Below, piece by piece: positions 20,994-52,564 of a DNA stretch of 52,564 bases; within the stretch, counting starts at the first letter, position 1, and every line of letters begins with the position of its first letter. Location: NCBI GenBank assembly GCA_963635025.1, contig CAVHFC010000005.1:1-52564 (forward strand), given 5' to 3'. The DNA is from Eubacterium sp. CAG:786 (GTDB taxonomy: Bacteria > Actinomycetota > Coriobacteriia > Coriobacteriales > Eggerthellaceae). The notes beneath the pieces were generated by a model, which was not told the origin of the DNA, ran no database searches, and saw only the letters and a list, made by a program, of their open reading frames with translations. The position numbers and the translations under genes were made by a program.

Positions 20994-21048
20994 TATCTGA
21001 ATCTTCGCGAGCTGAATGCTGAGTTTGCCTAACTTAATCGGTAGAGTG

Positions 21049-21064: not shown

Positions 21065-21084
21065 GTGTGAGGAGCATTCAGCCT

Positions 21085-25215: not shown

Positions 25216-26166
25216 ATGGCGACTCTTGATCCTTCCCAATGTCGAGTTGCTCTTCTTGCTGGCGGGAAAAGCAACGAACGGGAGATTTCCCTTGCGTCGG
25301 GCAAGGGTGCGCGAGAGGCGCTTGAGGCTGCCGGTTTTCCAGTCACTATGATCGATCCTGCTGACAAGAACGATTTGAAGAAACTCATCGACGAGGATTT
25401 CGATGTCGCGTTTCTTTGCATGCATGGCAAATTTGGGGAGGATGGAACCATTCAAGGTTTGCTGGATGTTTTAAGCATTCCCTACACATGTTCCGGTGTT
25501 TGGTCAAGCGCGTTGGCGATGGATAAATCGAAGACGAAGGTTTTCTATGAGCGCAACAATGTTCCTACTCCGCCCTCTTTAACGGTGTTTAAAGACGATG
25601 CTGTCGATGTTGCTGAAGTGGTGAAAAAGCTCGGAAGCAGCGTTGTGGTCAAGCCGGCGACTGAGGGTAGCGCTATTGGCGTGTTTATCGTCAACGGTGA
25701 AGAAGAGATCGCCGGAGCTTTGAAGAAGGCCTTTGAGATCGATTCCGAAGTGCTGATAGAGCGTTACATCAGGGGTCGCGAGTTCACCGTTGCGGTTCTT
25801 GGGAACAAGGATGCAGTCGCGTTTCCGGTTATCGAAATTGTTCCCAAGAGCGATTTTTATGATTTCGAATCGAAATATGCGCCCGGCGGATCTCAGCATA
25901 TTTGCCCCGCGAACATTCCTGATGACCTCGCAAGCCGCTTGAAGGATGCCGCTGTTGCCGCTCATGTTGCTCTTTCATGCAGCGGTACCTCTCGATCGGA
26001 TTTCCTCATGGAAGAAGACGGGACGTTTTGGGTCTTGGAAACCAACACCATACCCGGCATGACGGCAACTTCTCTGCTTCCCGATGCTGCGAGCGCAGCT
26101 GGAATGACATTCCCTGAGCTTTGCACGAAGCTGATTGAATTCGCATTGGAAGAGCAGACGTATTAA
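25216..26166 (+). CDS. ddl: D-alanine--D-alanine ligase
   Basis: GGKSNEREISL, HGKFGEDG, KPATEGS, FYDFESKY, ETNTIPGMT. Confidence 0.96.
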   Translation: MATLDPSQCRVALLAGGKSNEREISLASGKGAREALEAAGFPVTMIDPADKNDLKKLIDEDFDVAFLCMHGKFGEDGTIQGLLDVLSIPYTCSGVWSSALAMDKSKTKVFYERNNVPTPPSLTVFKDDAVDVAEVVKKLGSSVVVKPATEGSAIGVFIVNGEEEIAGALKKAFEIDSEVLIERYIRGREFTVAVLGNKDAVAFPVIEIVPKSDFYDFESKYAPGGSQHICPANIPDDLASRLKDAAVAAHVALSCSGTSRSDFLMEEDGTFWVLETNTIPGMTATSLLPDAASAAGMTFPELCTKLIEFALEEQTY

Positions 26167-30185: not shown

Positions 30186-30361
30186 GTTCCGTGAAGGGTA
30201 TGGCGTTCGAGATTCCGAGTTCTCTTCGGTACGTGAATCCCAGAGATTGCAGGTGAGTACGCGTGATGCCTCTATACGGGAGTTTTTGGGCGCCGAGGGC
30301 AAATGGCGTATACTTCAATCCAAATATGCCTTTGTAGGGCAGAGGAGTGAAAGGCAAGCAT

Positions 30362-33300: not shown

Positions 33301-33898
33301 CCGCCCATGGTACGGTGGTGCTTTCTCCACGCGACGCATGGAGCAAAGCAACCTGGATTCCGAGACAATTTCCGAAGAGGCTGCGGAAGCCGCCGCCGCG
33401 ACCGTTTCCCAGGATGTTGACGACGAGCTCAATCAGATTTACCAGTTCCGCAATCCCGACATCAAGACCGAGGTTTGGTTTGTGGCCCTTGGCTCAGAAC
33501 TGGTGCGGAACGCTGGCATGAAGGCGTTCGTTGAAGCTCATGCGAACGAGTTGCGAGGGGCTTTCATCGTGGAAGTTGACGCATTGGGTGCGGGCGAGCT
33601 GAGCATCATCGAGCGTGAAGGCACGCTCAAGCCCTCGCGCACGTCCTCTCGTATGAAGCGCTATATTCGCAAGGCCTCTCAGGCCAGTGGTGTCAAGCTT
33701 GGCAACGCTTCCATCCTTTGGGAGGAAAGTGCTGCCTCATACGCGACGAAACACGGCTTACAGGCTATGCATTTGGCTGGAATGAAGGACGGAAAACCTG
33801 CTTATCTGGGTCAGCAGGACGATGTTGCCGAGAACATTGAAGATGCGAAGATGGAGAGCAGTCTGCGATTCCTTATGGAGTTGTTAAAGAATATCTAG
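30362..33898 (+). CDS. Membrane protein with split, degenerate M28 peptidase-like domain and large acidic disordered insert
   Basis: GPRPAGTEEE, QNVVAK, VARYDS, GANNNASG; C-terminal EVWFVALGSE...EVDALG; about four TM helices; about 750-aa A/E/P/D-rich insert. Confidence 0.75.
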   Translation: MPDMKEHIAYLSQEVGPRPAGTEEEQQAALYITEQFQKDAGLPAAIEDFNGVGDADLPRMICGGAAAVFALLSLIVPVLGIVGVLVSLAAAVLLVCEELDKPILSKFLGRGVSQNVVAKYDPGAPSEGSGSRRRKIVIVARYDSGKVRQELQGPLPQMLPLIIKASIAGTAALPILLLIRCVALRNAEGFFPLLFTILTVVALLLAAVPCVIGALHKAAPYNEGANNNASGVAAVLELARRVGAGRVSEAELAEREDAIMHGEAAAWENDLIPEGAEFIYSASADASRDSSGDLATAKAAIAALSGKPVSGMSAEEVERNLEKLEAQNRADQEKELRSREIEQQAIEQMRADAGYSDEVVPSYAEEDFVAQEPPAVVDQPEKLDAGDQVETAYAPVEEPVEERAPSSSVPAWFVKAQAKAKKNAAEEKPVQRSRYASALDAAVAESTGHFAQANNIVESELEQTMEAGREVIHEVKAPQWATIHPTAPEKANNDELKSSSVEEPSKQEAAPATDQAVAGQVVAESAPAASTQALEPLADTEEPQKTIEPVSQPAQVSPAIGNIPEQFADPFATVQANPIDVAKLDLGEVPPMGDVPMPSFLNPRKVQEETAAKQPDIQRSPNRLNVTDASIASNGVVETAGLEAFSAPVPDPAPSQAEPFAFAPAVQADRAAQTDAKAPANLTLPAVSPLDPVTLPEIGVSAANPAPVAGLSKQRAPLADVESAGKTAAKSLLNMLPTIGTSDIESAAEGKSEEEGASNAKANLLASLPSLSGAIKMADSVENPSVSGPIAFAGTPGATGAFAPVTEDLVRDMAPEADPDDLYVDDADDSDYDEHFTESGAFAGPGYMEMPKSRFRRFLDRFRRSDDVEEDTPQEWLDVDDQFEARAVGKARGGWESFQNESYVEDGYADTDYPAENGYQGDDAAYAQPEAADGATQAFAPYDASSIDVADIAAAQGGSQANAVGGEQASQQGHDGAQPTRPWYGGAFSTRRMEQSNLDSETISEEAAEAAAATVSQDVDDELNQIYQFRNPDIKTEVWFVALGSELVRNAGMKAFVEAHANELRGAFIVEVDALGAGELSIIEREGTLKPSRTSSRMKRYIRKASQASGVKLGNASILWEESAASYATKHGLQAMHLAGMKDGKPAYLGQQDDVAENIEDAKMESSLRFLMELLKNI

Positions 33899-34025
33899 CG
33901 GCCGAAATAGGCATGTAACCGTCTGACGTGGGAATTAGCCTATAATATCCACGCTACAGAACGAATAGCGCATGGGTCTTAAAGTGAGAGCCATGCGCTT
34001 CCTATTAGCAAGGAGAGGTTTTACC

Positions 34026-34175
34026 ATGGCAATTGAGGCATACTGCGTAAAGTGCAAGGCCAAGAAAATCATGAAGGATCCTGTTGAGGGCCTCACTAAG
34101 AACGGTAAGCCGATCACGAAGGGCAAATGCCCTGATTGCGGCACGACCATCTGTCGGATCGGTGCTACCAAATAG
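34026..34175 (+). CDS. Small basic zinc-ribbon protein (DUF5679-like)
   Basis: MAIEAYCVKCK...KGKCPDCGTTICRIG, 49 aa; SD AGGAGAGG; hairpin at 34201-34223. Confidence 0.8.
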   Translation: MAIEAYCVKCKAKKIMKDPVEGLTKNGKPITKGKCPDCGTTICRIGATK

Positions 34176-34275
34176 CATATTGTTCGCATGACATTCGATT
34201 GATGCCCGCCCTGCGCGGGCATCGCTTGTTTTCAAGCGGGAAATTTTCGTCAGCAATCAAGGGAAAGGATGCGTT

Positions 34276-35740: not shown

Positions 35741-35828
35741 TGGCGGAGGAAGTAGGATTCGAACCCACGGAACCTTGCGGCTCAACAGTTTTCAAGACTG
35801 CCGCCTTCAACCACTCGGCCATTCCTCC
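35741..35828 (-). tRNA. tRNA-Ser(TGA)
   Basis: GGAGGAATGGCCGAGTGG...CT-TGA-AA...GGTTCGAATCCTAC...GCCA. Confidence 0.95.
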
Positions 35829-35862
35829 TTGAACGTAGGTAGGATACCATATAATGGAAATT

Positions 35863-36369
35863 ATGGATGATGAAGAATACATGCGGATGGCGCTTGAAGA
35901 GGCGCATCGCGCTTATCAGCTTGGAGAAGTCCCTATCGGGGCTGTCGTGGTGTATCACCCTATCGATCCTGCTACGCGTCGTTATCTTGCTGAACCGCGG
36001 GTGATAGCGAGGGCTTGCAATGTTCGCGAGACCCAGCAAGATCCAGCGGGTCATGCCGAGTTCGTTGCTATGAAAATGGCAGCGTGTGAGCTTGGGGTGT
36101 GGAGGCTTACGGGCTGCACGGTGTATGTGACGCTCGAACCATGCGTGATGTGCGCCGGATTGATGCACCAGGCTCGTATAAGCCGTTGCGTGTATGGGGC
36201 CTCGGATCCTAAAGCGGGCGCGCTGGGCACGCTGTACAGCATCAACGAAGACTCTCGTTTGAACCATACGTTCGAGGTAACCTCCGGGGTGCATGAAGAG
36301 GAATGCGCTTCGCTTCTCAAACAGTTCTTTTCTGAACGAAGAAAGAAAGGGCGAAAGAATAATGCCTGA
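35863..36369 (+). CDS. tadA: tRNA adenosine(34) deaminase TadA
   Basis: GEVPIGAVVV, HAE, TLEPCVMC, DPKAGA; start MDDEEYM lies 7 nt after TATAAT at 35850-35855. Confidence 0.93.
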   Translation: MDDEEYMRMALEEAHRAYQLGEVPIGAVVVYHPIDPATRRYLAEPRVIARACNVRETQQDPAGHAEFVAMKMAACELGVWRLTGCTVYVTLEPCVMCAGLMHQARISRCVYGASDPKAGALGTLYSINEDSRLNHTFEVTSGVHEEECASLLKQFFSERRKKGRKNNA

Positions 36370-37390
36370 TCAGAACAAAATATTGCAGGATGTTTCACGT
36401 GAAACATCGCCGTGGAACAATATCGACATGCTTGATGTTGCACGCGTTGCTCAAAAGGTTGACGAGCGAGATTTTCTTGGTGGTGGCTCTTTGAAGCTTA
36501 TAGCACCAGCTAAGGTGAACCTGCTTTTGCATGTGAAGGGTCGCCGAGCTGATGGATACCATCTCGTGGATACCACCATGCATGCTCTGATGTTGCATGA
36601 CGTGCTTCGAATGAAGACCGAACATGTTGATGGTTTGCCAGTCCATTTGACAACAAGGGCATTCGAAGGCCTGCCGGATTTGGATGTTCCGCCGGAGAAG
36701 AATATCGTTTATAAAGCCATTACGAGACTTGCGGATGCTGTTGGCCACACGCTTGGAGAAGGCGAGACGGTACGCGTGCACATCGAGAAGCATATTCCTG
36801 CACAAGCTGGCTTGGGCGGGGGCTCATCAGATGCTGCGGCAGCGCTGGTGGGTGCTGCAAGATTATGGGGCATAGACAAGGATGATGCGCGTATCGAAGA
36901 GGTAGCAGCGACGCTCGGTGCCGATGTACCCTTCTTCTTGCGGGGCGGCTGTGCGGAATACGATGGTGTTGGCGAGCATTTTGTTCGCGAGTTACAGCCT
37001 ATGGGAAACTATATCGTATTGGCGAAGCCGGAAGGCGGCGTTTCCACTGCGCAATCTTATCGTCTGTTCGACGAAAACCCCGTCACGATACCGGCTCAGG
37101 ACTGCGAGGATGCGTGCAAAGCGAATCGGGCGCAAGATGTTCCCTTGCGAAACAATATGGCAGCCGCATCAGAAAAGCTGTTGCCAGCGATTGCGGACGT
37201 TCGTACGTTCCTTTCGGCGCAAGAAGACGTTCAGGCTGCAATGATGTCGGGAAGCGGAGCGGCGGTGTTTGCGCTTTGCGACTCGCTTGATGTCGCCACG
37301 GCCGTTGCAAGCAAGGCTCAAGCTAAGGGATGGTGGGCGCGTACGACAACCTTCAGCCCTATTCGTGCGGCAATTGCTCCGAATCGATAG
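36362..37390 (+). CDS. ispE: 4-diphosphocytidyl-2-C-methyl-D-erythritol kinase (N-terminal extension; start uncertain)
   Basis: APAKVNL, GYH, KHIPAQAGLGGGSSDAA, GADVPFF, MSGSG. Confidence 0.93.
   Translation: MPDQNKILQDVSRETSPWNNIDMLDVARVAQKVDERDFLGGGSLKLIAPAKVNLLLHVKGRRADGYHLVDTTMHALMLHDVLRMKTEHVDGLPVHLTTRAFEGLPDLDVPPEKNIVYKAITRLADAVGHTLGEGETVRVHIEKHIPAQAGLGGGSSDAAAALVGAARLWGIDKDDARIEEVAATLGADVPFFLRGGCAEYDGVGEHFVRELQPMGNYIVLAKPEGGVSTAQSYRLFDENPVTIPAQDCEDACKANRAQDVPLRNNMAAASEKLLPAIADVRTFLSAQEDVQAAMMSGSGAAVFALCDSLDVATAVASKAQAKGWWARTTTFSPIRAAIAPNR
36391..36406. promoter_or_regulatory. parS: parS site within the 5' end of ispE
   Basis: GA-TGTTTCACGTGAAACA-TC; reads DVSRET in frame. Confidence 0.9.
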
Positions 37391-37402: not shown

Positions 37403-37762
37403 ATGATCGTCCGTCTTGTTCGTGCTCTACCTCTCGTTGTCGCTCTGGCTCTCATTGCGGGCGTGGTATATATCGTTGCTTCCTGGCGCTCTTCACCGGC
37501 GCGAGCAAAAGAGTTGCTTATCAAGATATTCACGGTACTGAATGGAGCGCTGTGCGTCTTCTTTGGCATCGCGACGTTATATGCGTTGGGAGAGGCGAAC
37601 ACGGACGTCATGGACTTGACGCTCACGTTTTTGGTTGCTGCGGCCATCGCGCTTATCATCACGCGCATCTGCCGTAGGGTGTTCCTGAAGCATAATCCCG
37701 CGTACAAGGTAAAGCCGGTAAAGGCAAAGAAGATTCGTCGTTGGCCCTGGGAGCGAAAGTAA
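37403..37762 (+). CDS. Small hypothetical membrane protein (3 TM, basic C-terminal tail)
   Basis: Three hydrophobic helices; directly after ispE. Confidence 0.7.
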   Translation: MIVRLVRALPLVVALALIAGVVYIVASWRSSPARAKELLIKIFTVLNGALCVFFGIATLYALGEANTDVMDLTLTFLVAAAIALIITRICRRVFLKHNPAYKVKPVKAKKIRRWPWERK

Positions 37763-41656: not shown

Positions 41657-43192
41657 TTACGCGTTCGCTTTCGCGCCCAAGCTGTCGGTGAGGCCGTCGA
41701 TCGGGGGCACGGCCTCATGGTCGACGTGCGGCTCCATCTTGGTTTCGTCGCCGTCGGCATCCTTCAGGCGGCGGAAGAAGTCCTTCGTCTCGCGGGCAAC
41801 CACGCCGGACAGCACGATCAGGGCGATCATGTTCGGGATGGCCATGCACGCGTTGAAGATGTCGGCGATGGTCCACACGGCGGAAACGGTCATGTAAGGG
41901 CCGATGAAAACGGCGGCAATGTAGAGCCAGCGGTACACCATGACGGCCTTCTGCGAACCGTTGCTGAAGTACTCAAGGCAACGCTCGCCGTAGTAGTCCC
42001 AGCCCAGGATGGTGGTGAAGCCGAACAGCGCCAGGCAGGCCATCACGACGAAGGCCACAACCTGCGACGGGATGAACGGCAGACCGGCCTGGAATGCGGC
42101 CGTGGTCACCGCGGCGCCCTCCAGCCCGGGGATTTGGTAGGCGCCGGTCATGACGAGCGCCAGGCCGGTCATGGAGCACACGATGATGGTGTCCAGGAAC
42201 GTGCCGGTCATGGACACGAGACCCTGGCGAACCGGTTCCTTCGTCTGTGCAGCAGCGGCGGCGATAGGCGCGGAGCCGAGGCCGGCCTCGTTGGAGAAGA
42301 TGCCGCGGGCGATGCCCTTCTGCATGGCGATGATGATGGCGCCGAGCGCTCCACCGGCGGCAGCGCGCAGGCCGAAGGCGCTTTCAACGATGACGACGAA
42401 CGCGCCGGGGATCTTGTCGAAGTTCGTCACCACCAAGATGAGCGAGAAGCCGACGTAGAGCACCACCATGGCGGGAATGACGCGCTCGGAAACCTTGGCG
42501 ATGCGCTGGATGCCACCGATGACCACGAGGCCCACCAGCACGGCAACTACCAGGCCGCCGATGACCGTCGCCCAGGAGTAATCCATGCCCAAGATGCTCA
42601 CCGTGGCGGCCTTATCGGGGTCGAAGAAGCCCGTTACCGCCGAAGAGATGGAATTGACCTGGGTAAACGTTCCGATGCCGAACAGGCCGACGCACATTCC
42701 GAAGAACGCGAAGATCTTTGCCAGCCACCTCCAGCTGATCTTCGGCAGGCGCTTGCCCATGCCGCGCTCGATGTAGTAGAACGGACCGCCGAGCACGTGC
42801 CCTGTCTTCTCGTCGACGCTGCGGTACTTCACGGCAAGAAGACCCTCGGAGTATTTGGTGGCCATGCCGAACAGCGCTGCCACCCACATCCAGAACATGG
42901 CGCCAGGGCCGCCGGCCACGATAGCGGTGGCCACGCCGACGATGTTGCCCGTTCCGATGGTGGCTGAAAGCGCGGTGCACAGCGCGCCGAAGCTGGAAAC
43001 CTCGCCGGTGCCGTCTTCCTCGTTCTTCACCATGTAGCGCAGTGCGCGCGGGAGCTGCCTGAACTGCAGGCCCGCCAGGCGCACCGTCAGCAAGATGCCG
43101 CCGGCGAGGATCAGCGCCATCAGGGGCACGCCCCACATAAAGTCGTCGATTGCCGTCAACAAGGTGTTGAAGGCGTCGAAAAATCCTTCCAC
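41657..43192 (-). CDS. Alanine/glycine:cation symporter (AGCS family)
   Basis: TIGTGNIVGVA, GGPGAMFWMW, RGIFSNEAGLGS, DTIIVC; GTG start after SD AAAGGAG. Confidence 0.93.
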   Translation of the reverse strand: MEGFFDAFNTLLTAIDDFMWGVPLMALILAGGILLTVRLAGLQFRQLPRALRYMVKNEEDGTGEVSSFGALCTALSATIGTGNIVGVATAIVAGGPGAMFWMWVAALFGMATKYSEGLLAVKYRSVDEKTGHVLGGPFYYIERGMGKRLPKISWRWLAKIFAFFGMCVGLFGIGTFTQVNSISSAVTGFFDPDKAATVSILGMDYSWATVIGGLVVAVLVGLVVIGGIQRIAKVSERVIPAMVVLYVGFSLILVVTNFDKIPGAFVVIVESAFGLRAAAGGALGAIIIAMQKGIARGIFSNEAGLGSAPIAAAAAQTKEPVRQGLVSMTGTFLDTIIVCSMTGLALVMTGAYQIPGLEGAAVTTAAFQAGLPFIPSQVVAFVVMACLALFGFTTILGWDYYGERCLEYFSNGSQKAVMVYRWLYIAAVFIGPYMTVSAVWTIADIFNACMAIPNMIALIVLSGVVARETKDFFRRLKDADGDETKMEPHVDHEAVPPIDGLTDSLGAKANA

Positions 43193-43378
43193 AGATAACT
43201 CCTTTGATATTGTCTCTCTCCCAAGCAATTTACAAGGCGAAACCCCGGGTGAGCGCGAATGGCAGCCGCGCGTTACTGCCGTGCGCATCAAGCGGGGCTT
43301 TGGGGATATGAGGTTGTGGAAAGGATTAGTGAAACACAAGCTTGAAGCTGCGGTCTCGCGACAAGCCCGGAGGCTTTT

Positions 43379-43492
43379 CTCTGTCCTTTTGCCTGAGAGT
43401 TTCAACGGTACGGTTCGCCGCAAAAGCGGCTCGGCATTGCTGCCTGCGTACGTCTTGCCCCTTCGGCACCCATAACCTGGGATTCTCCAGAG
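43379..43492 (-). ncRNA. Glycine riboswitch (single aptamer)
   Basis: Minus strand CTCTGGAGA...GCCGAAGGGGCAA...AAACTCTCAGGCAAAAGGACAGAG upstream of the AGCS gene. Confidence 0.9.
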
Positions 43493-43788
43493 GCCCCTAC
43501 ATGCCCTGTTCCGAAGGTTCAGGCCATGTCAACGGGGTGACGCTATGAAATTGTGGGAAGAACAGTAACAGCAGGGAAACGGATTGTAAACACCCTATTT
43601 ACCTAGGAACACTATTTTATGGGACAGATGGCTGGTTTTGGGGCGTAAGGTGTTTCGACGCTGTTTCGAGCTGCGGGTTTGCCGTTACAATGATGGCTTG
43701 CTGGTTGTGGCGTGCGAGGCGCCTCGCCAGGGCGTTTCGAGTGCTCCGAGTGCTTCGATCGGGTGGTTCCGAGGGAAAGGGATGGCGT

Positions 43789-44268
43789 ATGAGGTTCACC
43801 GTGGTGGCTGTGGGGAAGCTGAAAGAACGCTTCTGGGCGGACGCGTGCGCTGAATATCTCAAGCGCCTGCAGCCGTATGCGAAAACCGAAGTGCGCGAAA
43901 TCGCCGACATCGATCCGCGCAAGGCCGGTGGTGTCGACCAGGCGCGCACCAAGGAAGGCGAGCATATTTGCGCCGAGCTGGCCAAACTGGGAGCCGACAC
44001 GCATGTGGTGCTGCTTGCCATCGACGGCAAGCAGCGGTCGAGCGAAGGGCTGTCCAAGCGCCTTGATAACCTGATGCTGCAAGGCGTGAGCTCCTTCGCG
44101 TTCGTCATCGGCGGGTCGGATGGCGTCAGCGACGCGGTTCGTGCCCGTGCCGACGAGCTGCTTTCGTTCGGCGAAATCACCCTCCCCCACAATCTTGCAC
44201 GCGTGGTTTTGCTGGAGCAGCTGTATCGCGCGCAGAAGATATCGAAGGGTGAGCCGTACCACAAGTAG
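43789..44268 (+). CDS. rlmH: 23S rRNA pseudouridine-1915 N3-methyltransferase RlmH
   Basis: VGKLKE, EYLKRL, FVIGGSDG, TLPHNLARVVLLEQLYRA..I..GEPYHK. Confidence 0.96.
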   Translation: MRFTVVAVGKLKERFWADACAEYLKRLQPYAKTEVREIADIDPRKAGGVDQARTKEGEHICAELAKLGADTHVVLLAIDGKQRSSEGLSKRLDNLMLQGVSSFAFVIGGSDGVSDAVRARADELLSFGEITLPHNLARVVLLEQLYRAQKISKGEPYHK

Positions 44269-44443
44269 GCGTTGCGCGTGCGGAATGCGCTTCTCATCTG
44301 CAATTATCCTAAAAACAGAATAGTTAGCGATCGGTCACATTTGAGAATCGCGTTATGCAACAGATGAAAAGCAATCTATGGCTAACTTTGTGTGCAAAGA
44401 GTGTTTTCTGAGGCAAACATCATTAGGTTCACAAAACTGGGAC

Positions 44444-44471
44444 GTGACATTTGTTACCTCACCCATACAAT
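44444..44471 (+). promoter_or_regulatory. Candidate sigma70 promoter of the FMN-protein operon
   Basis: GTGACA-N16-TACAAT in the AT-rich spacer after rlmH. Confidence 0.45.
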
Positions 44472-44584
44472 GCTCTACGTGTTAATGCCGCCTTACTTGG
44501 CCTCCGGGCCGGTGGCGGAATGGCGAAGTGCGGAGGGCGTGATATTGCGCCGCTCTCATCGACAAGAAAGAGAAAGGAATGCGG

Positions 44585-47044
44585 ATGATCGAACGCAATG
44601 CAGTTCGTCTGCAGCTGCAGCATGCCGGCAACGTTGCCTCCAAGAGCATGCTTGCCGCAGCGCTGACGCTGTCGCTGAGCCCGGCGATTGCCCTGGCGCA
44701 GCAAAACGAAGGGGCAGCCGGCTTAGATGCTACCAACACTGAAACGGCTGCCCCCCAAACGAGTGAAGGTGCGGAAACCTCCAGCTCAGCTGTTGAGTAT
44801 ACGCTTTCCGGCGCAAGCGCGGAAAGCCTTGCGGCCGCTTCTTCATACGACCTGGCGAAGATCGCCGACGGCACGTATGAGGGCAGCTGCGTCATCGCTG
44901 ACAACGGCGATGCGCAAAACGACGACGAATGGGCCGGCTACACCACCATCGTCAAGGTGACGGTTGCCAACCATAAGATCACCGCCGTTGACGTGACGCG
45001 CAACGAGCCTTCCGAGAGCGCCCCGTACGTGAAGAAGGCCATCGAAGGCACGAAGAAGCAGGCCACGGGCGTTCCGGGCCAGATCGTCGCCGCTAACAGC
45101 ACGGATAGCATCGAGGTCATTTCCGGCGCCACCTACAGCAGCAACGCCATCAAGTCGGCTGTCGACGACGCGCTGGCCAAGGCCGCCACGGCAACGCCTT
45201 CCGATGAGTACACGTATGGCTTCGCCGCGCTCACCTGGACCGAATACTGGCAAGGCGAGGGTGTTTACAACGCCGACGACACCGCATCGAGCACCATCAA
45301 GGACTCCCATAACGAGCTTGACAAGGGCGGCTACGACGTGGTGACGCGCGCGACCACGAATCACGGCATGCATCGCGGCAGCTACCAGTGCTCCACCACG
45401 GTTGAAACCGAAGAGGGCCAGACGTTCGAGATCTCCTATTGGCCGGCCGAAGGCAAGGGCGCCACGTTCGTGACCACCGACGGCAAGACCGTCACCAAGG
45501 CAACCAACAAGGAAACCAAGGTTACGACGCTGACCTGCGACGGGAAGACCTACACGTTCAAGGATTACGACGTCACGGGCATCAAGTACGTGCCGGTGAA
45601 GGTGAAGACCTCCGACCTGGATGCGTTCAAGGAGAAGTACAGCTTCGTTGCCAACGGTGAGACGCTGCAGGGTGGTTACGGTGAGGGCAAGCTTTCCTCC
45701 TACACCGGGCTTGTGGCCGACGTGGACGCCGACACGAACAACCTGAAGACGGCGACGAAGACCGCCGACGGCTTCGAGTTTTCCGCTAACGCCTCCGGCA
45801 AGGATTCCGGCATCAAGGACCAGGAGCTGAAGACCGTCGATCTGTCCACGAAGGGCTTCACGCTGAAGTCGGGCGATGACATCGGAAGCTACGGCGAGTT
45901 CATCCGCGTCGACTTCACCGAGGATTTCGGTGATCTGGGCGCAAATATGCAGGCTGTGACCTGGACTTACTACGGTAACGACACCACGGCGACCACGCCG
46001 CTTGCCACCTACGGCACCAAGTTCGCGGCCGACAACTGGATGCATAAGGCCATGGGCATCCAGCTTGGCCTGACCGAATCGTATCGCTGTCAGCTGCCCG
46101 AGGGCACCGACGGCACCGGCACGTGGAAGGTGACCGTGCATGCGTTGGGCTACGAGGACGCTTCGATCACGTTCAACGCCACGGCCGATAACGTCAAGTT
46201 CGAGGTCTCCCCGGTAACCGACGAGACGAAGGCGAACCTTCAGATCGTCTACGACAAGGCTGCCGAAAAGGTTGAGTCCGACTACACCGCTGACTCCTGG
46301 AAGGAATTCGTCGTCGAGCGCGATGAGACCAAGGAGCTGCTTGCTAAGGAATCCCTGGGTGAGGCCGAAGCTGCTGAGCAGGTGAAGCATCTGCAGCAGG
46401 CGATGGACAACCTGGTTGAATACGTGCCGAGCTTCCCCGATGTGAACCCCGATGACCCGAGCGCCTGGTATGCCGAAGCCGTGCAGTTCATCGCCAAGAA
46501 GGGCCTGATGATCGGCTACGAAAACGGCAACTTCGGCGTGGGCGATTCCATGAAGCGCGCCCAGCTGGTCACGTCGCTGTGGCGCTACAGCGACCCCACC
46601 GCCGAGGCCGCCTACGACATGACCGACGCGAAGAGCGACAACGGATACAACGACGTCGCAGACAATCAGTACTTCACCGGGGCTGCCAACTGGGCGTATG
46701 CCAAGGGCGTTGTTGCTGGTTGGGAAAACGCCGACGGCACGCGCAGCTTCCTTCCCGCTAAGGAGCTTTCCTTCGAAGAGGCTGTTTGCATGATGGTGAA
46801 CATGCTGGCCGATGACAAGGAAGTCGAAGCTATCGATGCCGATAAGGTGCTGTCGAAGTTCGCGGACGCCGATACCGTGAGCACCTGGGCGAAGCAGAGC
46901 GTCGCGTGGGCCGTTGAGCACGGCCTGGTGAACGGCTACGGCAAGGGCGACGAACCGCGCACCATCGCTGCTGACGAAGTGGTGAGCCGCGAGCGCGGCG
47001 CTGCGGTGCTGTTCAACGCCTACGAGAACGGTTTCTTCAAGTAG
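44585..47044 (+). CDS. Secreted S-layer-anchored protein: FMN-binding domain + Tp47-like domains + FIVAR-like helix + 3 SLH
   Basis: Signal peptide ending ALA; DGTYEGS...EVISGATYSS; Tp47-like LTWTEYW...YDVVTRATTNHG and YGTKFAADNWMHK; SLH repeats (FPDV...WY.EAV, YNDV, FADADTVSTWAK). Confidence 0.8.
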   Translation: MIERNAVRLQLQHAGNVASKSMLAAALTLSLSPAIALAQQNEGAAGLDATNTETAAPQTSEGAETSSSAVEYTLSGASAESLAAASSYDLAKIADGTYEGSCVIADNGDAQNDDEWAGYTTIVKVTVANHKITAVDVTRNEPSESAPYVKKAIEGTKKQATGVPGQIVAANSTDSIEVISGATYSSNAIKSAVDDALAKAATATPSDEYTYGFAALTWTEYWQGEGVYNADDTASSTIKDSHNELDKGGYDVVTRATTNHGMHRGSYQCSTTVETEEGQTFEISYWPAEGKGATFVTTDGKTVTKATNKETKVTTLTCDGKTYTFKDYDVTGIKYVPVKVKTSDLDAFKEKYSFVANGETLQGGYGEGKLSSYTGLVADVDADTNNLKTATKTADGFEFSANASGKDSGIKDQELKTVDLSTKGFTLKSGDDIGSYGEFIRVDFTEDFGDLGANMQAVTWTYYGNDTTATTPLATYGTKFAADNWMHKAMGIQLGLTESYRCQLPEGTDGTGTWKVTVHALGYEDASITFNATADNVKFEVSPVTDETKANLQIVYDKAAEKVESDYTADSWKEFVVERDETKELLAKESLGEAEAAEQVKHLQQAMDNLVEYVPSFPDVNPDDPSAWYAEAVQFIAKKGLMIGYENGNFGVGDSMKRAQLVTSLWRYSDPTAEAAYDMTDAKSDNGYNDVADNQYFTGAANWAYAKGVVAGWENADGTRSFLPAKELSFEEAVCMMVNMLADDKEVEAIDADKVLSKFADADTVSTWAKQSVAWAVEHGLVNGYGKGDEPRTIAADEVVSRERGAAVLFNAYENGFFK

Positions 47045-47191
47045 GAAGCTGTTTGCGCAGGTAAGACGCGCGATCGAAAGATAACGGAGGTGGGCGCTGC
47101 GATGGTGCTCGCCTCCGAAAGCATGGGGAGGAGGCGCCGGGGCGCCCCTTCCCCATGCGGCGTTTTAAAGGATGCATGATTGAGGACGGGT

Positions 47192-48868
47192 ATGACTGAA
47201 GAGAAGAACGGAGCTGACGTGGTCGAGCAGGCGGCTGCGGGCGAGGCTTCCTCGAGGATGCGCGACGTTGCGAAGAAGGCGGCATCGGCCGGTTTCCTCA
47301 TGCCGTCGGTGCTGGTGGGGGCTGTTGTCGCCTTGGTGGTGGCGCAGTATCAGCCGCTCGTGTTCGACGCTTCGGCATATCCCGCGGCCGAGCAGGCAAG
47401 CGCGACGGAGATGAAGCCGGTCGAGGTGACCTCCGAGCGCCAGAGCGATCAGCCTGCGACGGGCGTAAGCTACAACGCCTCCGATTACGGTGTGGATGCG
47501 ACGAACCTCAAAGACGGCACCTATACCGGTTCGGGCCAGGGTTACAAGTCCACCATCACGGTGGAGGTGACCATCGCAGGCGGCAAGATCACGGCTATCG
47601 AGGTTGTGTCGCAGGACGATGACGAGCCGTACTTCAGCAACGCGAAGACGCTCATTTCCCAGGTCATCGCCAAGCAGTCCACGTCGGTGGACACGGTGTC
47701 GGGTGCCACGTATTCATCGAAGGGCATTTTAGTGGCTATCAAGAATGCGCTCGATAAGGCGGCCGGTGGCTTGGGAAGCGAGACCAACGCTGGCGGGCAG
47801 GCGGCCTCGGCGGGGACGTCGACGGATTCCGCGAAGCAGCATGCGACTTTGAATCCGACCGCGGTGCCTGCTAGTGGCTACCTTGACGGAACCTATACAG
47901 GTTCGGGCGAGGGCTACAAATCCACCATCGCGGTGGCGGTGACCATCGCGGGCGGCAAGATTTCCCAGATAGATGTGGTGTCGCAAGATGACGATGCTGA
48001 GTATTTCTCACGTGCGAAGGGCTTGATTTCGCAGGTGGTTGCCCAGCAGTCGACCGCAGTGGACGTGGTGTCGGGCGCGACGTTTTCTTCGGAGGGCATC
48101 TTGTCGGCCATCGAGGACGCGCTTTCCAAGGCGGTGCGCGACGGCGGCAGCAGCGATAGCGGCAACGATGGCGGTTCCGAAAACGGCGCTTCCGCGGGCG
48201 ACGACGGAAAAGCGGACGGCAACAACGGGAGCGCCGACGGGAAAGACGATGGCGGCAAAAAGGATGATTCCGGTGACGAGGATTCTGCGACCGGGTACCT
48301 TGACGGCGACTATCCCGTGTTCGTGAAGTGCTTCAACGAGGAAGACGAAGAGGAATTCGAGCCGTATTACCTTGCCATGACCGTGACGGTGAGCGGCGGC
48401 AAGGCGACAGCCATTTCCAGCCTTCATGGCAGTGAAACCGGTGCGGCAGGCGATGCGGTGCTCGGAGAATACGATACCGCTAACGATCTGTATCTGAATT
48501 GGGCGGCCAACGGGCGCACCATCAAGGGCGTGCAACATGCCGGCGTGGTGACGCAGCTGATCGACCAGCACAAAAGCCCCGCGAACATCGACGTGGTGAG
48601 CCGCGCGACCTACTCCTCGCGCGCTATCGCCAACGCGTACGCCAAGGCGATGGAGCTGGCGAAGCAGGCTTACGAGCGCGCTCATGCGGCGAAGGTTGAC
48701 GGGAGCGCCGAAGCGGTGACGCCGGTTGAAGGGGAAGACACCGCGGCCCCGACGGATGCCGAAGAGGCGAAGCCGGCAGACGACGGTGCTGCCAGCCCGA
48801 CAGGCGAGCCCGAGGGGTCTGTTGCCGCGCCTTCGGCCGACCTCAAGGATGTGAGCGGCCGTGGGTAG
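47192..48868 (+). CDS. Membrane-anchored protein with three FMN-binding (flavinylation) domains
   Basis: N-terminal TM; DGTYTGSGQGY...DTVSGATYSS, DVVSGATFSS, DVVSRATYSS, separated by low-complexity linkers. Confidence 0.88.
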   Translation: MTEEKNGADVVEQAAAGEASSRMRDVAKKAASAGFLMPSVLVGAVVALVVAQYQPLVFDASAYPAAEQASATEMKPVEVTSERQSDQPATGVSYNASDYGVDATNLKDGTYTGSGQGYKSTITVEVTIAGGKITAIEVVSQDDDEPYFSNAKTLISQVIAKQSTSVDTVSGATYSSKGILVAIKNALDKAAGGLGSETNAGGQAASAGTSTDSAKQHATLNPTAVPASGYLDGTYTGSGEGYKSTIAVAVTIAGGKISQIDVVSQDDDAEYFSRAKGLISQVVAQQSTAVDVVSGATFSSEGILSAIEDALSKAVRDGGSSDSGNDGGSENGASAGDDGKADGNNGSADGKDDGGKKDDSGDEDSATGYLDGDYPVFVKCFNEEDEEEFEPYYLAMTVTVSGGKATAISSLHGSETGAAGDAVLGEYDTANDLYLNWAANGRTIKGVQHAGVVTQLIDQHKSPANIDVVSRATYSSRAIANAYAKAMELAKQAYERAHAAKVDGSAEAVTPVEGEDTAAPTDAEEAKPADDGAASPTGEPEGSVAAPSADLKDVSGRG

Positions 48869-49400
48869 TTTTCTGCTGCGTAAGCGCAATTTCATCCTGA
48901 AGGCCGCCAACGTAGCTGTCGTCGTCGCACTCGTTGCATGGTTCAGCACCTGGGCTGCCGAGACGAACCAAGCCGACGCGCAGGTGCAGCAGCAAATCCT
49001 CGAAGCGCAGAAGGCCGCAAGTCGCGGACCCTTCCCCGTTGACGGAACGTTCACGGGCAGCGCCCAGGGCTACGGCGGCCCGGTAACCACGCAGGTGACC
49101 ATTGAGGGCGGCTACCTAGAGAACGTGCAGGTCATCGCCGCGCCGAACGAGGACGGGCCGTATCTGGAGCAGGCGGTGAAGCTCATCGACGACATGCTCA
49201 TGAAGCAAACGCCGAACGTCGATGTGGTGTCGGGCGCGACGTTCAGCTCCGCAGGCATCATCAACGGCGTTATCCAGGCTATCGACTCTGCTGGTTCGGA
49301 TGAGGGCTCGGGCGCTGGCGCGGCAACGGTCGGCTCGGCGTCGGCGAGCGCTGCGCCCGCCGGCGATGCATCCGCTTCCGCCACGCAAGGCGGTGCATAG
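48861..49400 (+). CDS. Single FMN-binding domain membrane protein
   Basis: N-terminal TM; DGTFTGSAQGYGG...DVVSGATFSS. Confidence 0.88.
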   Translation: MGSFLLRKRNFILKAANVAVVVALVAWFSTWAAETNQADAQVQQQILEAQKAASRGPFPVDGTFTGSAQGYGGPVTTQVTIEGGYLENVQVIAAPNEDGPYLEQAVKLIDDMLMKQTPNVDVVSGATFSSAGIINGVIQAIDSAGSDEGSGAGAATVGSASASAAPAGDASASATQGGA

Positions 49401-49401
49401 C

Positions 49402-50265
49402 ATGGCGAAGATCACCTCGAAGGCGGCCCTTCGCCAGCGCCGCTTGACCGTGAACCGCGGCGTGCGCTGGGCCGTGCAAATCGCGTTCTTCATCGCGTTT
49501 CCCGCAGTGTTCAGCGCTGCGTTCAACGGCGTGAAGTACCTGTTCACGCAAATGGGAGGGCGGCAGCCGGTGGAGTTCGGCGCGTTTTTGGCGCTGCTTT
49601 GCGCCATGCTCGCGGCCACCGCGGTGCTCGGACGCTTCTTCTGCGGCTACGCCTGTGCGTTCGGAACGCTTGGGGATGCGCTGTTCGCCCTGTTCACGCC
49701 CGTGCGCAAGAAGATCAAGCCGAAAGGATCGCTGCTGAACCCGAAGGTGCAGCGCGGCTTGCAGGCTCTGAAATACGTGGTGCTGGTGGCCATCTGCCTG
49801 CTGTGCTTCACGGGTGCCTGGTCGCAGGTTTCCGGCTATAGCCCCTGGACGGCTTTTGCGGGAATCACCGGCGGAAACGTCGAGGGAATCGCTGTCGGCG
49901 CTTTTGTCGTGCTGGGTTGCGTCGCAGTGGGCATGCTGTTCGTCGAGCGGTTCTTCTGCCAGTTCCTCTGCCCGCTCGGCGCGCTGTTCAGCTTGATACC
50001 GGTGCTCCCCTTTTCCGCATTTCGACGCGATACGCAGCATTGCGCGCGCAGCTGCAACCTGTGCAAGCGCAACTGCCCGGTGTCGGTCCACCCCGACCCC
50101 GACGCCTTCGCCGCGGGAGAGTGCATCGCGTGTTCTCGCTGCGCCGACGGCTGCCCGCTGGACAACGTGACGTTGCTGCGCACCCCGAAGGTGCGCGGAA
50201 GCGAGATCGCCTTGGTGCTGGTGAAGGCCGCGGCGCTGTTCGCGCTGTGTTGGTGGCTTATGTAG
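49402..50265 (+). CDS. NapH/MauN-like membrane 4Fe-4S protein
   Basis: TMs; RFFCGYACAFG, RFFCQFLCPLG; two ferredoxin motifs CARSCNLCKRNCP and CIACSRCADGCP. Confidence 0.88.
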   Translation: MAKITSKAALRQRRLTVNRGVRWAVQIAFFIAFPAVFSAAFNGVKYLFTQMGGRQPVEFGAFLALLCAMLAATAVLGRFFCGYACAFGTLGDALFALFTPVRKKIKPKGSLLNPKVQRGLQALKYVVLVAICLLCFTGAWSQVSGYSPWTAFAGITGGNVEGIAVGAFVVLGCVAVGMLFVERFFCQFLCPLGALFSLIPVLPFSAFRRDTQHCARSCNLCKRNCPVSVHPDPDAFAAGECIACSRCADGCPLDNVTLLRTPKVRGSEIALVLVKAAALFALCWWLM

Positions 50266-50322
50266 AATGATGGCGCGGCGAACGTGCGCCCGCGCCCGCC
50301 GATAGGAAGGTTGGCTTGCCCT

Positions 50323-51399
50323 ATGAGAGAATCTCTGTCCCGCCGAAGGTTTTTGTCGCTGTCGCTGTGCTCGATGGCGGCGCTCGCCGCGCCTGCGTGG
50401 CTTGCGGGTTGCGCGGGGTCGAGCTCGAACTCGAACGGCGCGACGGAATCTTCAAGCGCCTCGTCAAGCGCGGCATCCCAGCAGGAGGTGCGCTCGATCA
50501 CGCTGTTCAACTTCGATACGGTCATCCAGATCAGCGCGCGCACGTCGGACGAGGTCATGCAGCAGCTTTCCGATCGCTGCGAGTATTTCGAGAACAAGTT
50601 CTCCCGCACCATCGAGGGTACCGACATTTGGAATATCAACCACGCCGCCGGCTCCCCGGTGGAGGTCGCGCCCGAAACCTCGCAATGCATTTCCGCTGCG
50701 CTTGAGTATTCGAAAGCATCCGATGGCCTGTTCGACATCACCATCGGCGCGGTGTCGAGCTTGTGGGACTTCGTGACCGGCGTGAAGCCCGACGACGCGG
50801 CCATCCAGGAAGCGGTCAAGCATGTTGACTATCGCTGCGTGCAGGTGGATGGCAACACGGTGACGCTGAGCGATCCTGCGGCGATGCTCGATTTGGGCGG
50901 CATCGCGAAGGGCTTCATCACCGACGACTTGGTGAGCATTCTGCGCGATGCGGGCTGCGAAAGCGCCATGCTTTCCTTGGGCGGCAACGTCTACGTGCTG
51001 GGCGAAAGCTTCCGCGGGGATAACTGGAACGTGGGCGTGCAGGATCCCAACGGAGCCACCGACGACGTGATCGCGAGCGTTCCGGCGCAGAACAAGTCCG
51101 TGGTCACGAGTGGCCTCTATGAGCGCAGCTTCACGCAGGACGGCGTCCTGTACTACCATATCTTGGACCCGAAAACGGGCTACCCTGCGCAAACCGATCT
51201 GGCGAGCGCGTCGATCATGTCGGAGGCGTCGACCGACGGCGATGCCTATTCCACTATCCTGTTCCTGCTTGGACACGACCGGGCCATCGAGCTTTTGAAT
51301 TCCGATGCGCGCTTCAGCGGCGTGGTGGTGGACATGAACGACACGGCGACTGCTTCGGCGGGGTCGGATTTCACGATTTTGGATAAGGAGCGCTCATGA
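50323..51399 (+). CDS. apbE: FAD:protein FMN transferase ApbE/FmnB (twin-Arg lipoprotein)
   Basis: SRRRFL...LAGC; FDITIG, DLGGIAKG, GGN, TSGLYER, HILDPKTG, DAYST. Confidence 0.95.
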   Translation: MRESLSRRRFLSLSLCSMAALAAPAWLAGCAGSSSNSNGATESSSASSSAASQQEVRSITLFNFDTVIQISARTSDEVMQQLSDRCEYFENKFSRTIEGTDIWNINHAAGSPVEVAPETSQCISAALEYSKASDGLFDITIGAVSSLWDFVTGVKPDDAAIQEAVKHVDYRCVQVDGNTVTLSDPAAMLDLGGIAKGFITDDLVSILRDAGCESAMLSLGGNVYVLGESFRGDNWNVGVQDPNGATDDVIASVPAQNKSVVTSGLYERSFTQDGVLYYHILDPKTGYPAQTDLASASIMSEASTDGDAYSTILFLLGHDRAIELLNSDARFSGVVVDMNDTATASAGSDFTILDKERS

Positions 51400-51806
51400 C
51401 GGCGGCGCAACAGCGGGCATTCGGTCGCATGAAAAAGAACGTCCTGATCATCGGCGTGCTTGTCGCCGTGGTGGTGATATCGTTCGTGGTGATGCAGGTG
51501 GTGGGCGCCACGACGCCGGCGCGCACCGTGGTGGTCACTGACGGCGAGGGCAATACCCACGCCCTTTCCCTGTCGTCGAATGCCGAGCAGACCATCACCA
51601 CGAGCTTGGGCACCAACGTGGTGAAGGTCTCTGGCGGCAAGGTGTGCGTCGAGGAGGCGGATTGCCCCAATCAGGACTGCGTGAACCAGGGGTGGATATC
51701 CGAGGTTGGGCAGCAGATTGTGTGCCTGCCGCATAAGCTTATCGTCGAGATAACCGACGGCGACGGATCGAACGCGAGCAAACGCTACGACGTCGTGGGT
51801 TCGTAG
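51396..51806 (+). CDS. NusG domain II-containing protein (EetA-like)
   Basis: TM + GTNVVKV...EADCPNQDCV..GWI...IVCLPHKL. Confidence 0.88.
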   Translation: MTAAQQRAFGRMKKNVLIIGVLVAVVVISFVVMQVVGATTPARTVVVTDGEGNTHALSLSSNAEQTITTSLGTNVVKVSGGKVCVEEADCPNQDCVNQGWISEVGQQIVCLPHKLIVEITDGDGSNASKRYDVVGS

Positions 51807-51821
51807 GGACCGTCGCGTCGC

Positions 51822-52564
51822 ATGCCCGAGCAGTCTCGCATAGCCTCCACCCGGCGTTTGGCGCGCGTCTCTTTGCTTGCCGCGCTGGCTTTGGTGCTCA
51901 GCTATATCGAAACCATGATCCCGCTTCCCGTGGCGCTGCCCGGCGTGAAGCTGGGACTTTCCAACGTTGCCGTGGTGGTGGCGCTGCTTTCGCTCGACAT
52001 GCGCGCGGGCGTATCGGTTGCCTTGGTGAAGGTGGTGGCCTCGGGATTTCTGTTCGGCTCCCCCATGATGTTTGCGTACAGCTTAGGCGGCACGGTGCTG
52101 GCGTTTTCGGGCGCGGCGGCGCTGTCGCGCGTTCCGGACATGGGGGCGGTTGCCGTGAGCATGGTTGCCGCCGTGTTGCACAACGCCGGTCAGCTGGCGG
52201 TGGCGGCGCTGATGCTCGGCACGGCTTCGGTGTTCGTGAACCTGCCGCCGCTGGCCTTGGCGGCGTGCGTGACCGGCGCTGTGACCGGCGCGGTGGCGGC
52301 CGGTGTGCTGGCGGCGCAGCCGAGGGAGGGAACGTTTCACGTGAAACGTTCTGATGGGCGCGGTGTTGTGCCTGATGGGAAGCACTTCTTGAGGAGAGAT
52401 TCCAGAAGTTCGGCCTCATCTGAGTTGTTTTCCCGCCCTGCCGCATCCGGTGGGTTCGGCGTCTACGCTCCCGGGTGCTCCTTCGCTCATCGTCTTGATC
52501 CTCGCGCGAAAATCGCGTTCGTCATCCTGTTCTTCGTTGCGGCGTTCTGTGCGCAGGGGCTGGC
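51822..52564 (+). CDS. Gx transporter/EetB-like ECF S-component fused in frame to an EcfT (FmnA-like) domain; truncated by window end
   Basis: Manual translation (absent from the ORF track): MPEQSR...LSYIETMIPLP..PGVKLGLSN...HNAGQL...linker...GVYAPGCSFAHRLDPRAKI; no stop up to 52564. Confidence 0.85.
   Translation, partial: MPEQSRIASTRRLARVSLLAALALVLSYIETMIPLPVALPGVKLGLSNVAVVVALLSLDMRAGVSVALVKVVASGFLFGSPMMFAYSLGGTVLAFSGAAALSRVPDMGAVAVSMVAAVLHNAGQLAVAALMLGTASVFVNLPPLALAACVTGAVTGAVAAGVLAAQPREGTFHVKRSDGRGVVPDGKHFLRRDSRSSASSELFSRPAASGGFGVYAPGCSFAHRLDPRAKIAFVILFFVAAFCAQGL
52333..52348. promoter_or_regulatory. parS: parS site (CGTTTCACGTGAAACG) in the linker of the fusion CDS
   Basis: 22-bp palindrome GAACGTTTCACGTGAAACGTTC at 52330-52351. 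Confidence 0.8.

Follow-up and report, generated by a model that had tools for sequence, protein, structure and literature searches.

Where would electrons be led by a chain of flavin-carrying proteins that runs from the cytoplasmic membrane of a bacterium to its surface layer, and what kind of protein stands at the outer end of such a chain? The question is raised by the far end of a 52,564-nt stretch of DNA from Eubacterium sp. CAG:786, a member of the Eggerthellaceae (contig CAVHFC010000005.1 of assembly GCA_963635025.1, positions 1 to 52,564; this whole stretch is called the window below). From 44.5 kb to the end of the window, the list of open reading frames (ORFs) contains seven tightly packed genes, g1 to g7, all on the + strand (Table 1). 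An earlier interpretation, made from the letters alone (the sequence-only reading), took these genes for a flavin-based electron wire, and its inventory of the genes was borne out by the Pfam and NCBIfam scans on which all our domain calls are based; two Tp47 domains in g1 had, however, been overlooked. Here we argue that the seven genes probably encode an extracytosolic conduit which, by way of covalently bound flavin mononucleotide (FMN), would carry electrons outwards and would end at this Tp47 module.

The protein at the putative outer end, g1, consists of a signal peptide that terminates in ALA/QQ (as read from the sequence), an FMN_bind domain, the domains Tp47_a and Tp47_c, a helical linker and three S-layer homology (SLH) repeats. 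Its residues are counted here from the first ATG of the ORF, at 44579; the second ATG, at 44585, is better spaced from the GAAAGGA site and yields a product of 819 aa, in line with the homologs P0001, P0003 and P0008. The two Tp47 domains make up 40% of g1. Their only solved relative is Tp47 of Treponema pallidum (TP0574; PDB 1o75), which g1 matches both by sequence (E 1.7e-16) and by Foldseek (E 1.9e-15). Specifically, the g1 model superposes on 1o75_B with Z 18.8 and a root-mean-square deviation of 3.6 over 267 aa (27% identity), the common fold extends over domains A-C, and both proteins contain the motifs DxV[ST]RATxxHG and TKxxADxW. The AlphaFold2 model of residues 95-545 has a pLDDT (predicted local distance difference test) of 85.7; for the Tp47 module alone, modelled from a more diverse alignment, the pLDDT is 89.6 and the predicted TM-score (pTM) 0.89. 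A comparison of model residues 116-323 with 48,161 chains by VIA-align retrieved no fold besides Tp47, although this segment may have been under-tested within the 451-residue model. The FMN_bind domain of g1, in turn, superposes on SaFMN3-D2 (8p2a, Z 12.3) and CbFMN4-D1 (8p2b, Z 10.0), as well as on RnfG (7zc6_G, Z 7.2) and NqrC (4xhf, Z 6.9), and the SLH repeats weakly match the Sap SLH structures 3pyw and 6bt4. The treponemal Tp47 differs from g1 in being a stand-alone lipoprotein that is annotated as penicillin-binding, whereas the module of g1 is fused to FMN_bind and SLH within a flavinylation operon.

Which part of g1 is conserved in evolution? Residues 100-545 gave more than 7,900 database protein matches. 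SLH was present in three of the 120 matches listed; most of those listed carried FIVAR in its place (these were not counted), and others had DUF4214 or fn3. A profile search against 1.84 billion representatives points to a family of modest size, with 817 members at E<=1e-3, of which 204 also pass E<=1e-30. An FMN_bind domain is present in 40 of the 108 full-length proteins from the best 150, as judged by a purpose-built hidden Markov model, and absent from 68. The Tp47 module, which was retained in every cluster arrangement that we saw, is the conserved outer element of these systems, and the SLH anchor is a lineage-specific swap. The sequence-only reading had seen in g1 an SLH-anchored flavin carrier; both the anchor and the FMN_bind domain are indeed there, but g1 is not merely that, its conserved core being the Tp47 module, which is predicted to form the acceptor-facing end of the chain. 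As to the anchor itself, the genome contains 73 SLH matches and one polysaccharide pyruvyl transferase (PF04230, 54.9 bits, contig 11), and SLH is the general anchor of the lineage of g1. These matches are spread over more than 30 ORFs, for a genome of 2.5 Mb an unusual wealth of SLH surface proteins; contig 13 carries tandem arrays of SLH proteins of roughly 780-850 aa (e.g. at 236-10565), further matches lie on contigs 70, 118 and 11, and on contig 11 the pyruvyl transferase gene adjoins SLH genes.

To survey the spread of the cluster, one genome per species was scanned with two Tp47 peptide patterns as seeds, and the seven operon proteins were compared by tblastn with the 80 genome loci obtained. 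All seven genes recur, beyond chance, in 52 of these loci, with identical order in 47, a strong synteny. The loci with the seven-gene order are titled Collinsella, Senegalimassilia, Eggerthellaceae, Slackia and Ellagibacter, and most of the remaining 28 loci are interrupted by contig ends. Collinsella aerofaciens isolates (L018, L042 and L045) are among the carriers of the seven genes. In nine Lachnospiraceae-type loci, the order is ApbE, multi-FMN, FMN, NapH-like, (NusG_II, EetB) and Tp47 protein; in one locus (L065), a Tp47 protein without FMN_bind stands divergent from the ApbE cluster. Among 80 metagenome loci, 61 show a stand-alone Tp47-like gene followed by 2xFMN_bind, FMN_bind and NapH-like genes; these 61 belong to one lineage (about 79% identity) and count as one further arrangement, not as 61 independent cases. 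The stand-alone forms are 437-444 aa long and have a signal peptide and no FMN_bind domain. The flanks of the cluster vary among genera and, of 201 genomes sampled from the class, only 4 gave a PF14888 (Tp47_c) match, so that the cluster is a self-contained accessory unit. A quick, midpoint-rooted tree of the Tp47 module carries no transfer direction. Six loci from 'cleanbin' records (L004, L005, L014, L029, L040 and L056) hold high-GC clusters of the Coriobacteriia type and group with Coriobacteriia in this tree; their titles (Butyrivibrio, Anaerovoracaceae, Prevotella, Succinivibrio, Bacteroidaceae and Alloprevotella) look unreliable.

The gaps between consecutive genes from g1 to g7 amount to 135, -8, 1, 18, -4 and 15 nt. 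Within 43600-52564, the only promoter-like match on the + strand is the GTGACA/TACAAT site in front of g1, both hexamers of which are identical in two close orthologous loci (L004 and L005), and terminator-like sites number three vs 8.0 expected by chance. On balance, it seems rather likely that the seven genes make up one conserved operon. Upstream of the promoter-like site, at window positions 44300-44420, lies a block of about 40 nt (AATCTATGGCTAACTTTGTGTGCAAAGAGTGTTTTCT) that is near-identical in the three closest loci and may be the site of a regulator. A consensus search for a DtxR/IdeR-like box, with up to 3 mismatches, yielded no matches in the window, this block included, and an Rfam scan of 43000-52564 at E<=1 revealed no FMN riboswitch, the sole match being a glycine riboswitch.

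The three proteins that would link g1 to the membrane and to its electron donor are encoded by g2, g3 and g4. The product of g2 has a single N-terminal transmembrane helix (aa 37-55), and its three FMN_bind domains are separated by low-complexity linkers of 40-55 aa, which would fit a flexible arm. With more than one FMN_bind domain after a transmembrane helix, g2 is a multi-flavinylated protein as defined by Meheust et al. (2021, eLife, PMC8238504), its flavinylation being predicted. The third FMN_bind domain of g2 (aa 372-505, window 48293-48694) is longer than the other two and contains an invariant cysteine, C384; its S-R-A-T site is S-G-A-T in some orthologs, and this domain may be specialised for the hand-over of electrons. 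The next protein, g3, has one transmembrane helix (aa 11-29) in front of its single FMN_bind domain and is the counterpart of the FMN_bind domain with which most NapH-like proteins are fused. In g4, the start of which, at 49402, is backed by conservation from residue 1, a basic N-terminus is combined with five or six hydrophobic segments, CX3C and CX3CP motifs and two CxxCxxCxxxCP-type motifs, a layout that equals that of NapH, with the Fe-S clusters predicted on the cytoplasmic side. The best NCBIfam matches of g4 (NapH/MauN and NosR, the latter 42.2 bits) are far under the cut-offs. A NapH-like flavinylation system is defined by a protein with PF12801 or K19339 in a gene cluster with an ApbE or FMN_bind protein (Meheust et al. 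2021, PMC8238504); g4 carries PF12801 above its cut-off of 22 bits, an FMN_bind gene precedes it and the ApbE gene follows. The NapH-like membrane module of the sequence-only reading is consistent with the domain content and the synteny. We also considered g4 as a NapH proper and rejected this assignment: it scored 60.3 bits vs 213 required by TIGR02163 and 53.6 vs 234 by NF007013, and no nap genes are nearby.

The remaining genes are consistent with a flavin-supply module of the Listeria type, as had been read from the letters. The ApbE protein g5 has a Tat-like SRRRFLS signal and a LAGC lipobox, with ATG 50323 as the probable start; it scored 113 with the E. coli ApbE equivalog model, below the cut-off of 498, and is the sole ApbE found in the 91%-complete genome. 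This genome contains six FMN_bind domains, five of which are in the operon and one on contig 7. Since g5 is the only ApbE found, it presumably also serves the FMN_bind protein of contig 7, which is encoded (L084, 4253-7224) between a cytochrome c3-like gene and a fumarate-reductase-like FAD_binding_2 gene. The NusG_II protein g6 has one N-terminal hydrophobic helix (transmembrane segment at aa 18-36), and in related loci its gene always stands beside the PF07456 gene. This position next to EetB is that of EetA, to which g6 may be equivalent; EetA and NusG were not found named together in the literature searched. The last gene, g7, runs past the window, and the energy-coupling factor (ECF) T-component that the sequence-only reading had attributed to it was borne out through orthology: since its 77%-identical ortholog (L004:16027-17532, 501 aa) is a fusion of PF07456 with CbiQ (106.4 bits) and precedes the same exonuclease III gene, g7 itself is predicted to be an EetB-EcfT/CbiQ fusion. 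A PF07456 S-component with an ECF-T, as combined in this ortholog and predicted for g7, is the pair by which ECF-type FAD exporters are recognised. There are three further CbiQ/EcfT genes elsewhere in the genome; no genes of ECF ATPases were found in the cluster or in the remaining 6 kb of the contig. In a Collinsella aerofaciens record (L018, 18469-21155), the last two genes of the cluster encode, in this order, an EetB-ABC ATPase and an ABC ATPase-CbiQ fusion. As EetB-EcfA and EcfA'-EcfT, they amount to a complete dedicated ECF exporter, whereas the operon of g7 has EetB-EcfT only.

Are there sites to which ApbE could attach FMN? The motif of this enzyme is D-x-x-[S/T]-G-A-[S/T] (PMC12052999). 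Matches to a loose version of the pattern occur by chance elsewhere in these proteins, so that motifs embedded in domains alone were counted. Six motifs of the form acidic-x-x-[S/T]-x-A-T stand in a domain context, as many as the sequence-only reading had listed: T185 and T259 of g1, T177, T301 and T477 of g2 and T127 of g3, five of them in FMN_bind domains and one, T259, in Tp47_a. Four have the S-G-A-T core, namely g2 T177 and T301 and g3 T127, which are fully canonical, and g1 T185 (EVISGAT), where E replaces the leading D. In the remaining two, g2 T477 (SRAT) and g1 T259 (TRAT), R replaces G; T477 is invariant in 16 aligned orthologs, the 'G' position there being occupied by R, S or G.

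We infer flavinylation itself, the order of the relay, its outward direction, its donor and its acceptor from the gene content, domains, motifs, synteny and fold described above, which are observed. The NapH-like Fe-S protein g4 would take up electrons, with the menaquinol pool or a donor in the cytoplasm as their probable source, and hand them to the FMN bound covalently to g3 at the membrane. From there, the three FMNs of g2, a flexible arm tethered to the membrane, would relay them to the FMN_bind domain of the SLH-anchored g1, the Tp47 module of which would face the acceptor. The FMNs would be attached outside the membrane by the lipoprotein g5; the flavin adenine dinucleotide (FAD) used for this would be exported by the EetB-EcfT protein g7, working with housekeeping ECF ATPases, and g6 would serve as an accessory membrane protein. 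A naphthoquinone pool is plausible as the donor of g4, because the genome contains menB above the cut-off and a MenA-like prenyltransferase, the latter below it; MqnA and MqnC were not found in the genome. The graded relay of the sequence-only reading, from membrane FMN through a 3xFMN arm to a wall protein, is consistent with domains and synteny, but it missed the Tp47 core of the end protein. Multi-FMN proteins are known to be flavinylated by ApbE, the potential of SaFMN3 being -184 mV (Tong et al. 2023, PMC10339131), and in Listeria EetB-FmnA exports FAD for ApbE (Rivera-Lugo et al. 2023, PMC9973259).

Several points weigh against this conduit. Flavinylation, co-transcription, surface exposure and electron flow are all predictions. 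The published function of Tp47 is penicillin binding together with carboxypeptidase activity, not redox chemistry. Since the Fe-S motifs of g4 are predicted to be cytoplasmic, the passage of electrons across the membrane is left without explanation. The cluster is without ECF ATPases, unlike that of Collinsella, and it is patchy, as follows from the PF14888 (Tp47_c) count in the class given above. In none of the genera examined does the cluster contain or adjoin a gene for a donor enzyme (Ndh2, NapG-like or dehydrogenase), a recognisable terminal reductase or anything related to an acceptor.

A refinement of the outward conduit would make the Tp47 module itself a substrate of ApbE, with T259 carrying a sixth covalent FMN as the last redox centre. 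We regard this as a tentative suggestion that more probably fails than holds; flavinylation of T259 is plausible because genuine FMN_bind domains of this system tolerate various residues at the 'G' position, and a binding or catalytic loop would suit the data equally well. Indeed, the motif (DVVTRAT) fits D-x-x-[S/T]-x-A-T, and in bona fide FMN_bind domains the 'G' is unconserved, being N, T, G, Q, K or S in homologs of g1 and R, S or G, next to an invariant Thr, in domain 3 of g2. All 120 long homologs and 117 of the 120 short ones carry the extended motif D-x-V-[S/T]-R-A-T-x-x-H-G. The strict D-x-V-[S/T]-R-A-T is found in 103 of the 108 full-length representatives, which came from a search without word seeding, the other five being one loose variant and four N-terminally truncated proteins; the 80 genome loci, seeded on this very motif, were left out of the count. 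The motif is also kept in the treponemal Tp47, where DVVTRAT aligns with DAVSRAT, and it lies in a long irregular loop of the lowest internal confidence (pLDDT below 50 in model 1, a 10-residue block with a mean of 63 in model 2). Furthermore, 68 of the 108 representatives, as well as the stand-alone forms, lack an FMN_bind domain of their own, yet the stand-alone loci adjoin FMN_bind and NapH-like genes. To our knowledge, the 1o75 crystal structure shows no covalent flavin, which is uninformative given recombinant cytoplasmic expression. The arginine at the 'G' position is, however, invariant and not merely tolerated, conservation extends well past seven residues (DKGxxDxV[ST]RATxNHGxHRGSxQ), as would also fit an active-site or ligand-binding loop, and replacement of G by A halves the flavinylation of a model substrate (PMC12052999). 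The broader proposition, that the Tp47 fold is a new ApbE-flavinylated domain and the terminal reductase of flavin wires that span the wall in gut Gram-positive bacteria, and that by extension the syphilis Tp47 would be no penicillin-binding protein but a redox protein of the periplasm, appears to us rather doubtful.

What else could the chain be for? Other clusters do connect flavinylation systems with iron transporters (Meheust et al. 2021, PMC8238504), and the sequence-only reading had named the assimilation of ferric iron among the possible roles; nothing at this locus, however, indicates iron. Neither the 44 kb upstream of the cluster nor the 6 kb downstream contains an iron transporter or regulator, none occurs in the cluster flanks of four other genera, and the above-mentioned consensus search of the window (up to 3 mismatches) found no DtxR/IdeR-like box, so that reduction of ferric iron at the cell surface for assimilation is unlikely. 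The flow could also be inward, the Tp47 module oxidising an extracellular donor and the NapH-like protein feeding the quinone pool: direction is not fixed by sequence, and NapH-like modules have been proposed for reductases and oxidases alike (Meheust et al. 2021, PMC8238504). We give this little credence, since the host most probably lives by anaerobic fermentation and needs sinks rather than donors, and a low-potential FMN (-184 mV in SaFMN3, PMC10339131) suits donation. Finally, the Pfam names, the Tp47 literature and the wall location of g1 would agree with a peptidoglycan-directed enzyme or binding domain, with the flavin chain either maintaining the redox state of the wall or being unrelated. 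Such a role appears very improbable, given that Tp47 is fused to, or stands beside, FMN_bind, NapH-like and ApbE genes in three arrangements and two phyla, and that SLH, FIVAR, DUF4214 and fn3 anchors already provide for wall binding.

Table 1. Features of the flavin operon and its upstream region (window coordinates; aa positions of g1 from the first ATG)
Feature	Position	Strand	Description	Basis
Promoter-like site	44444..44471	+	GTGACA-16 nt-TACAAT, ~110 nt upstream of g1	
g1	44585..47044 (ORF opens 44579)	+	Secreted wall-anchored protein (predicted)	Pfam, PDB 1o75 match, AlphaFold2
g1 FMN_bind domain	44936..45175	+	aa 120-199	Pfam, 36.8 bits
g1 Tp47 module	45203..46198	+	Predicted acceptor-facing end	PBP-Tp47_a + PBP-Tp47_c
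PBP-Tp47_a	45203-45706	+	g1 aa 209-376	Pfam, 199.9 bits (cut-off 25)
DVVTRAT (T259)	45335..45355	+	Tp47_a loop motif resembling ApbE site	g1 translation
PBP-Tp47_c	45728-46198	+	g1 aa 384-540	Pfam, 228.6 bits (cut-off 25)
Three SLH repeats	46433..47023	+	Wall anchor, g1 aa 619-815	Pfam SLH, 67.5 bits
g2	47180..48868	+	Membrane-anchored 3xFMN_bind protein	Pfam FMN_bind, three stretches, 127.6 bits
g3	48861..49400	+	1xFMN_bind anchor protein	Pfam FMN_bind, 42.5 bits
g4	49402..50265	+	NapH-like polytopic membrane protein	Fer4_5 (PF12801), 37.5 bits
g5	50284..51399	+	ApbE flavin transferase	ApbE PF02424, 266.2 bits
g6	51396..51806	+	NusG_II membrane protein	NusG_II, 98.7 bits
g7	51822..52564, past window to ~53228 (that part masked)	+	EetB-like ECF S-component	Hpre_diP_synt_I/EetB PF07456, 119.3 bits

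On the 3' side of the operon, the last 6 kb of the 58.5-kb contig contain genes for exonuclease III, GTP cyclohydrolase I, TauE and a GGDEF-EAL protein; ECF ATPases, ndh2 and iron transporters, which the sequence-only reading had proposed to seek in the downstream DNA, are all missing there. On the 5' side are rlmH, a glycine riboswitch with an alanine:sodium symporter gene, shikimate kinase and an EamA transporter; the riboswitch aptamer (43371-43500, - strand, 54.8 bits, gathering score 32) lies directly 5' of the symporter gene (41657-43423, - strand). The replication origin region spans 7097-22872, with gyrA, gyrB, recF, dnaN and dnaA on the - strand and yidC, jag/KhpB, rsmG and parA on the + strand, and the distance from dnaA to the flavin operon is about 28 kb. 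Between 22796 and 37762, there is a run of ORFs with coding-like GC3 (GC content at third codon positions) and no Pfam match at E<=1e-5 (22796-23551, 24193-24528, 25579-25965, 30272-31144, 31427-31813, 32720-33346, 33935-34222, 35782-36805 and 37403-37762), which is broken by the genes of a DinG-like exonuclease-helicase and a citrate synthase.

How does the operon relate to known systems? The flavin-based extracellular electron transfer (EET) locus of Listeria monocytogenes, said to have been described by Light et al. in 2018, reportedly comprises FmnB/ApbE, PplA, EetA, EetB, FmnA, Ndh2 and DmkA/B. The operon described here differs from it in the lack of Ndh2 and DmkA/B, the membrane step being taken by a NapH-like Fe-S protein, in having three proteins with five or six predicted flavin sites vs two sites on the Listeria PplA, and in the wall-anchored end protein with its Tp47 module. 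Both have ApbE, EetB and ECF-T (fused in the operon), a small membrane neighbour and extracytosolic FMN_bind carriers (Rivera-Lugo et al. 2023, PMC9973259). In the operational definition of Meheust et al. (2021, PMC8238504), flavin-based EET (FLEET) systems have a membrane NADH dehydrogenase in the cluster. Ndh2 (K03885), which the sequence-only reading had not seen in the window, is absent from the seven genes, from the 44 kb upstream and from the 6 kb downstream, the remainder of the genome not having been searched for it, and the operon thus falls outside this definition within its seven genes and flanks.

PceC and NosR, which are flavinylated, NapH-like and serve organohalide and N2O respiration, combine an extracytosolic FMN_bind domain, a polytopic membrane domain and cytoplasmic Fe-S motifs, as do g3 and g4 together; here, however, these parts are split into two genes, there is no reductive dehalogenase or NosZ, and the scores are far below the cut-offs. 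SaFMN3 and CbFMN4 (PMC10339131; PDB 8p2a and 8p2b) are strings of FMN_bind domains like g2 and are flavinylated by ApbE; they were studied in isolation, and no partner, anchor or Tp47 module is considered. Further counterparts are the NapH-like clusters catalogued by Meheust et al. (2021, PMC8238504), which number 2465 and carry FMN_bind on a separate gene in 539 cases. As in the operon, a PF12801 protein stands there beside ApbE and FMN_bind genes, and a separate FMN_bind gene, a protein with more than one FMN_bind domain outside the cytosol, further FMN_bind proteins and a large wall protein with SLH are found. The same source lists clusters with 'large unannotated proteins' (SLH, Rib, FIVAR, LysM) and models a wall-spanning path, whereas in the operon the wall protein consists of FMN_bind and Tp47_a/c, with Tp47 as the invariant element. 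Fusions of EetB with ECF-T and with ECF-A have been described as well, and eetB neighbours some NapH-like systems (Rivera-Lugo et al. 2023, PMC9973259).

Hence, the operon is a member of a published class known from bioinformatics, and the novelty that the sequence-only reading saw in its 'hybrid' character does not hold: NapH-like clusters, multi-flavinylated proteins, SLH/FIVAR proteins and the colocalisation of eetB had all been catalogued (PMC8238504, PMC9973259). The identity of the outer module as Tp47 was not found in the searchable literature, the supplementary cluster tables of Meheust et al. 2021 being outside this coverage, and the literature searched gave nothing relevant on TP0572-TP0575.

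Wall-spanning flavin relays of this class are experimentally unexplored, and the operon is a testable case because it is compact and self-contained and because close versions of it are present in cultured Collinsella aerofaciens strains. If the loop of the Tp47 module were indeed flavinylated, this would reveal a new class of ApbE substrates and widen the range of accepted motifs. With a named, invariant outer module, the catalogued 'unannotated' wall proteins gain a handle, and the Tp47 family, the physiological role of which has been unclear since the structure was solved, gains a concrete, testable hypothesis.

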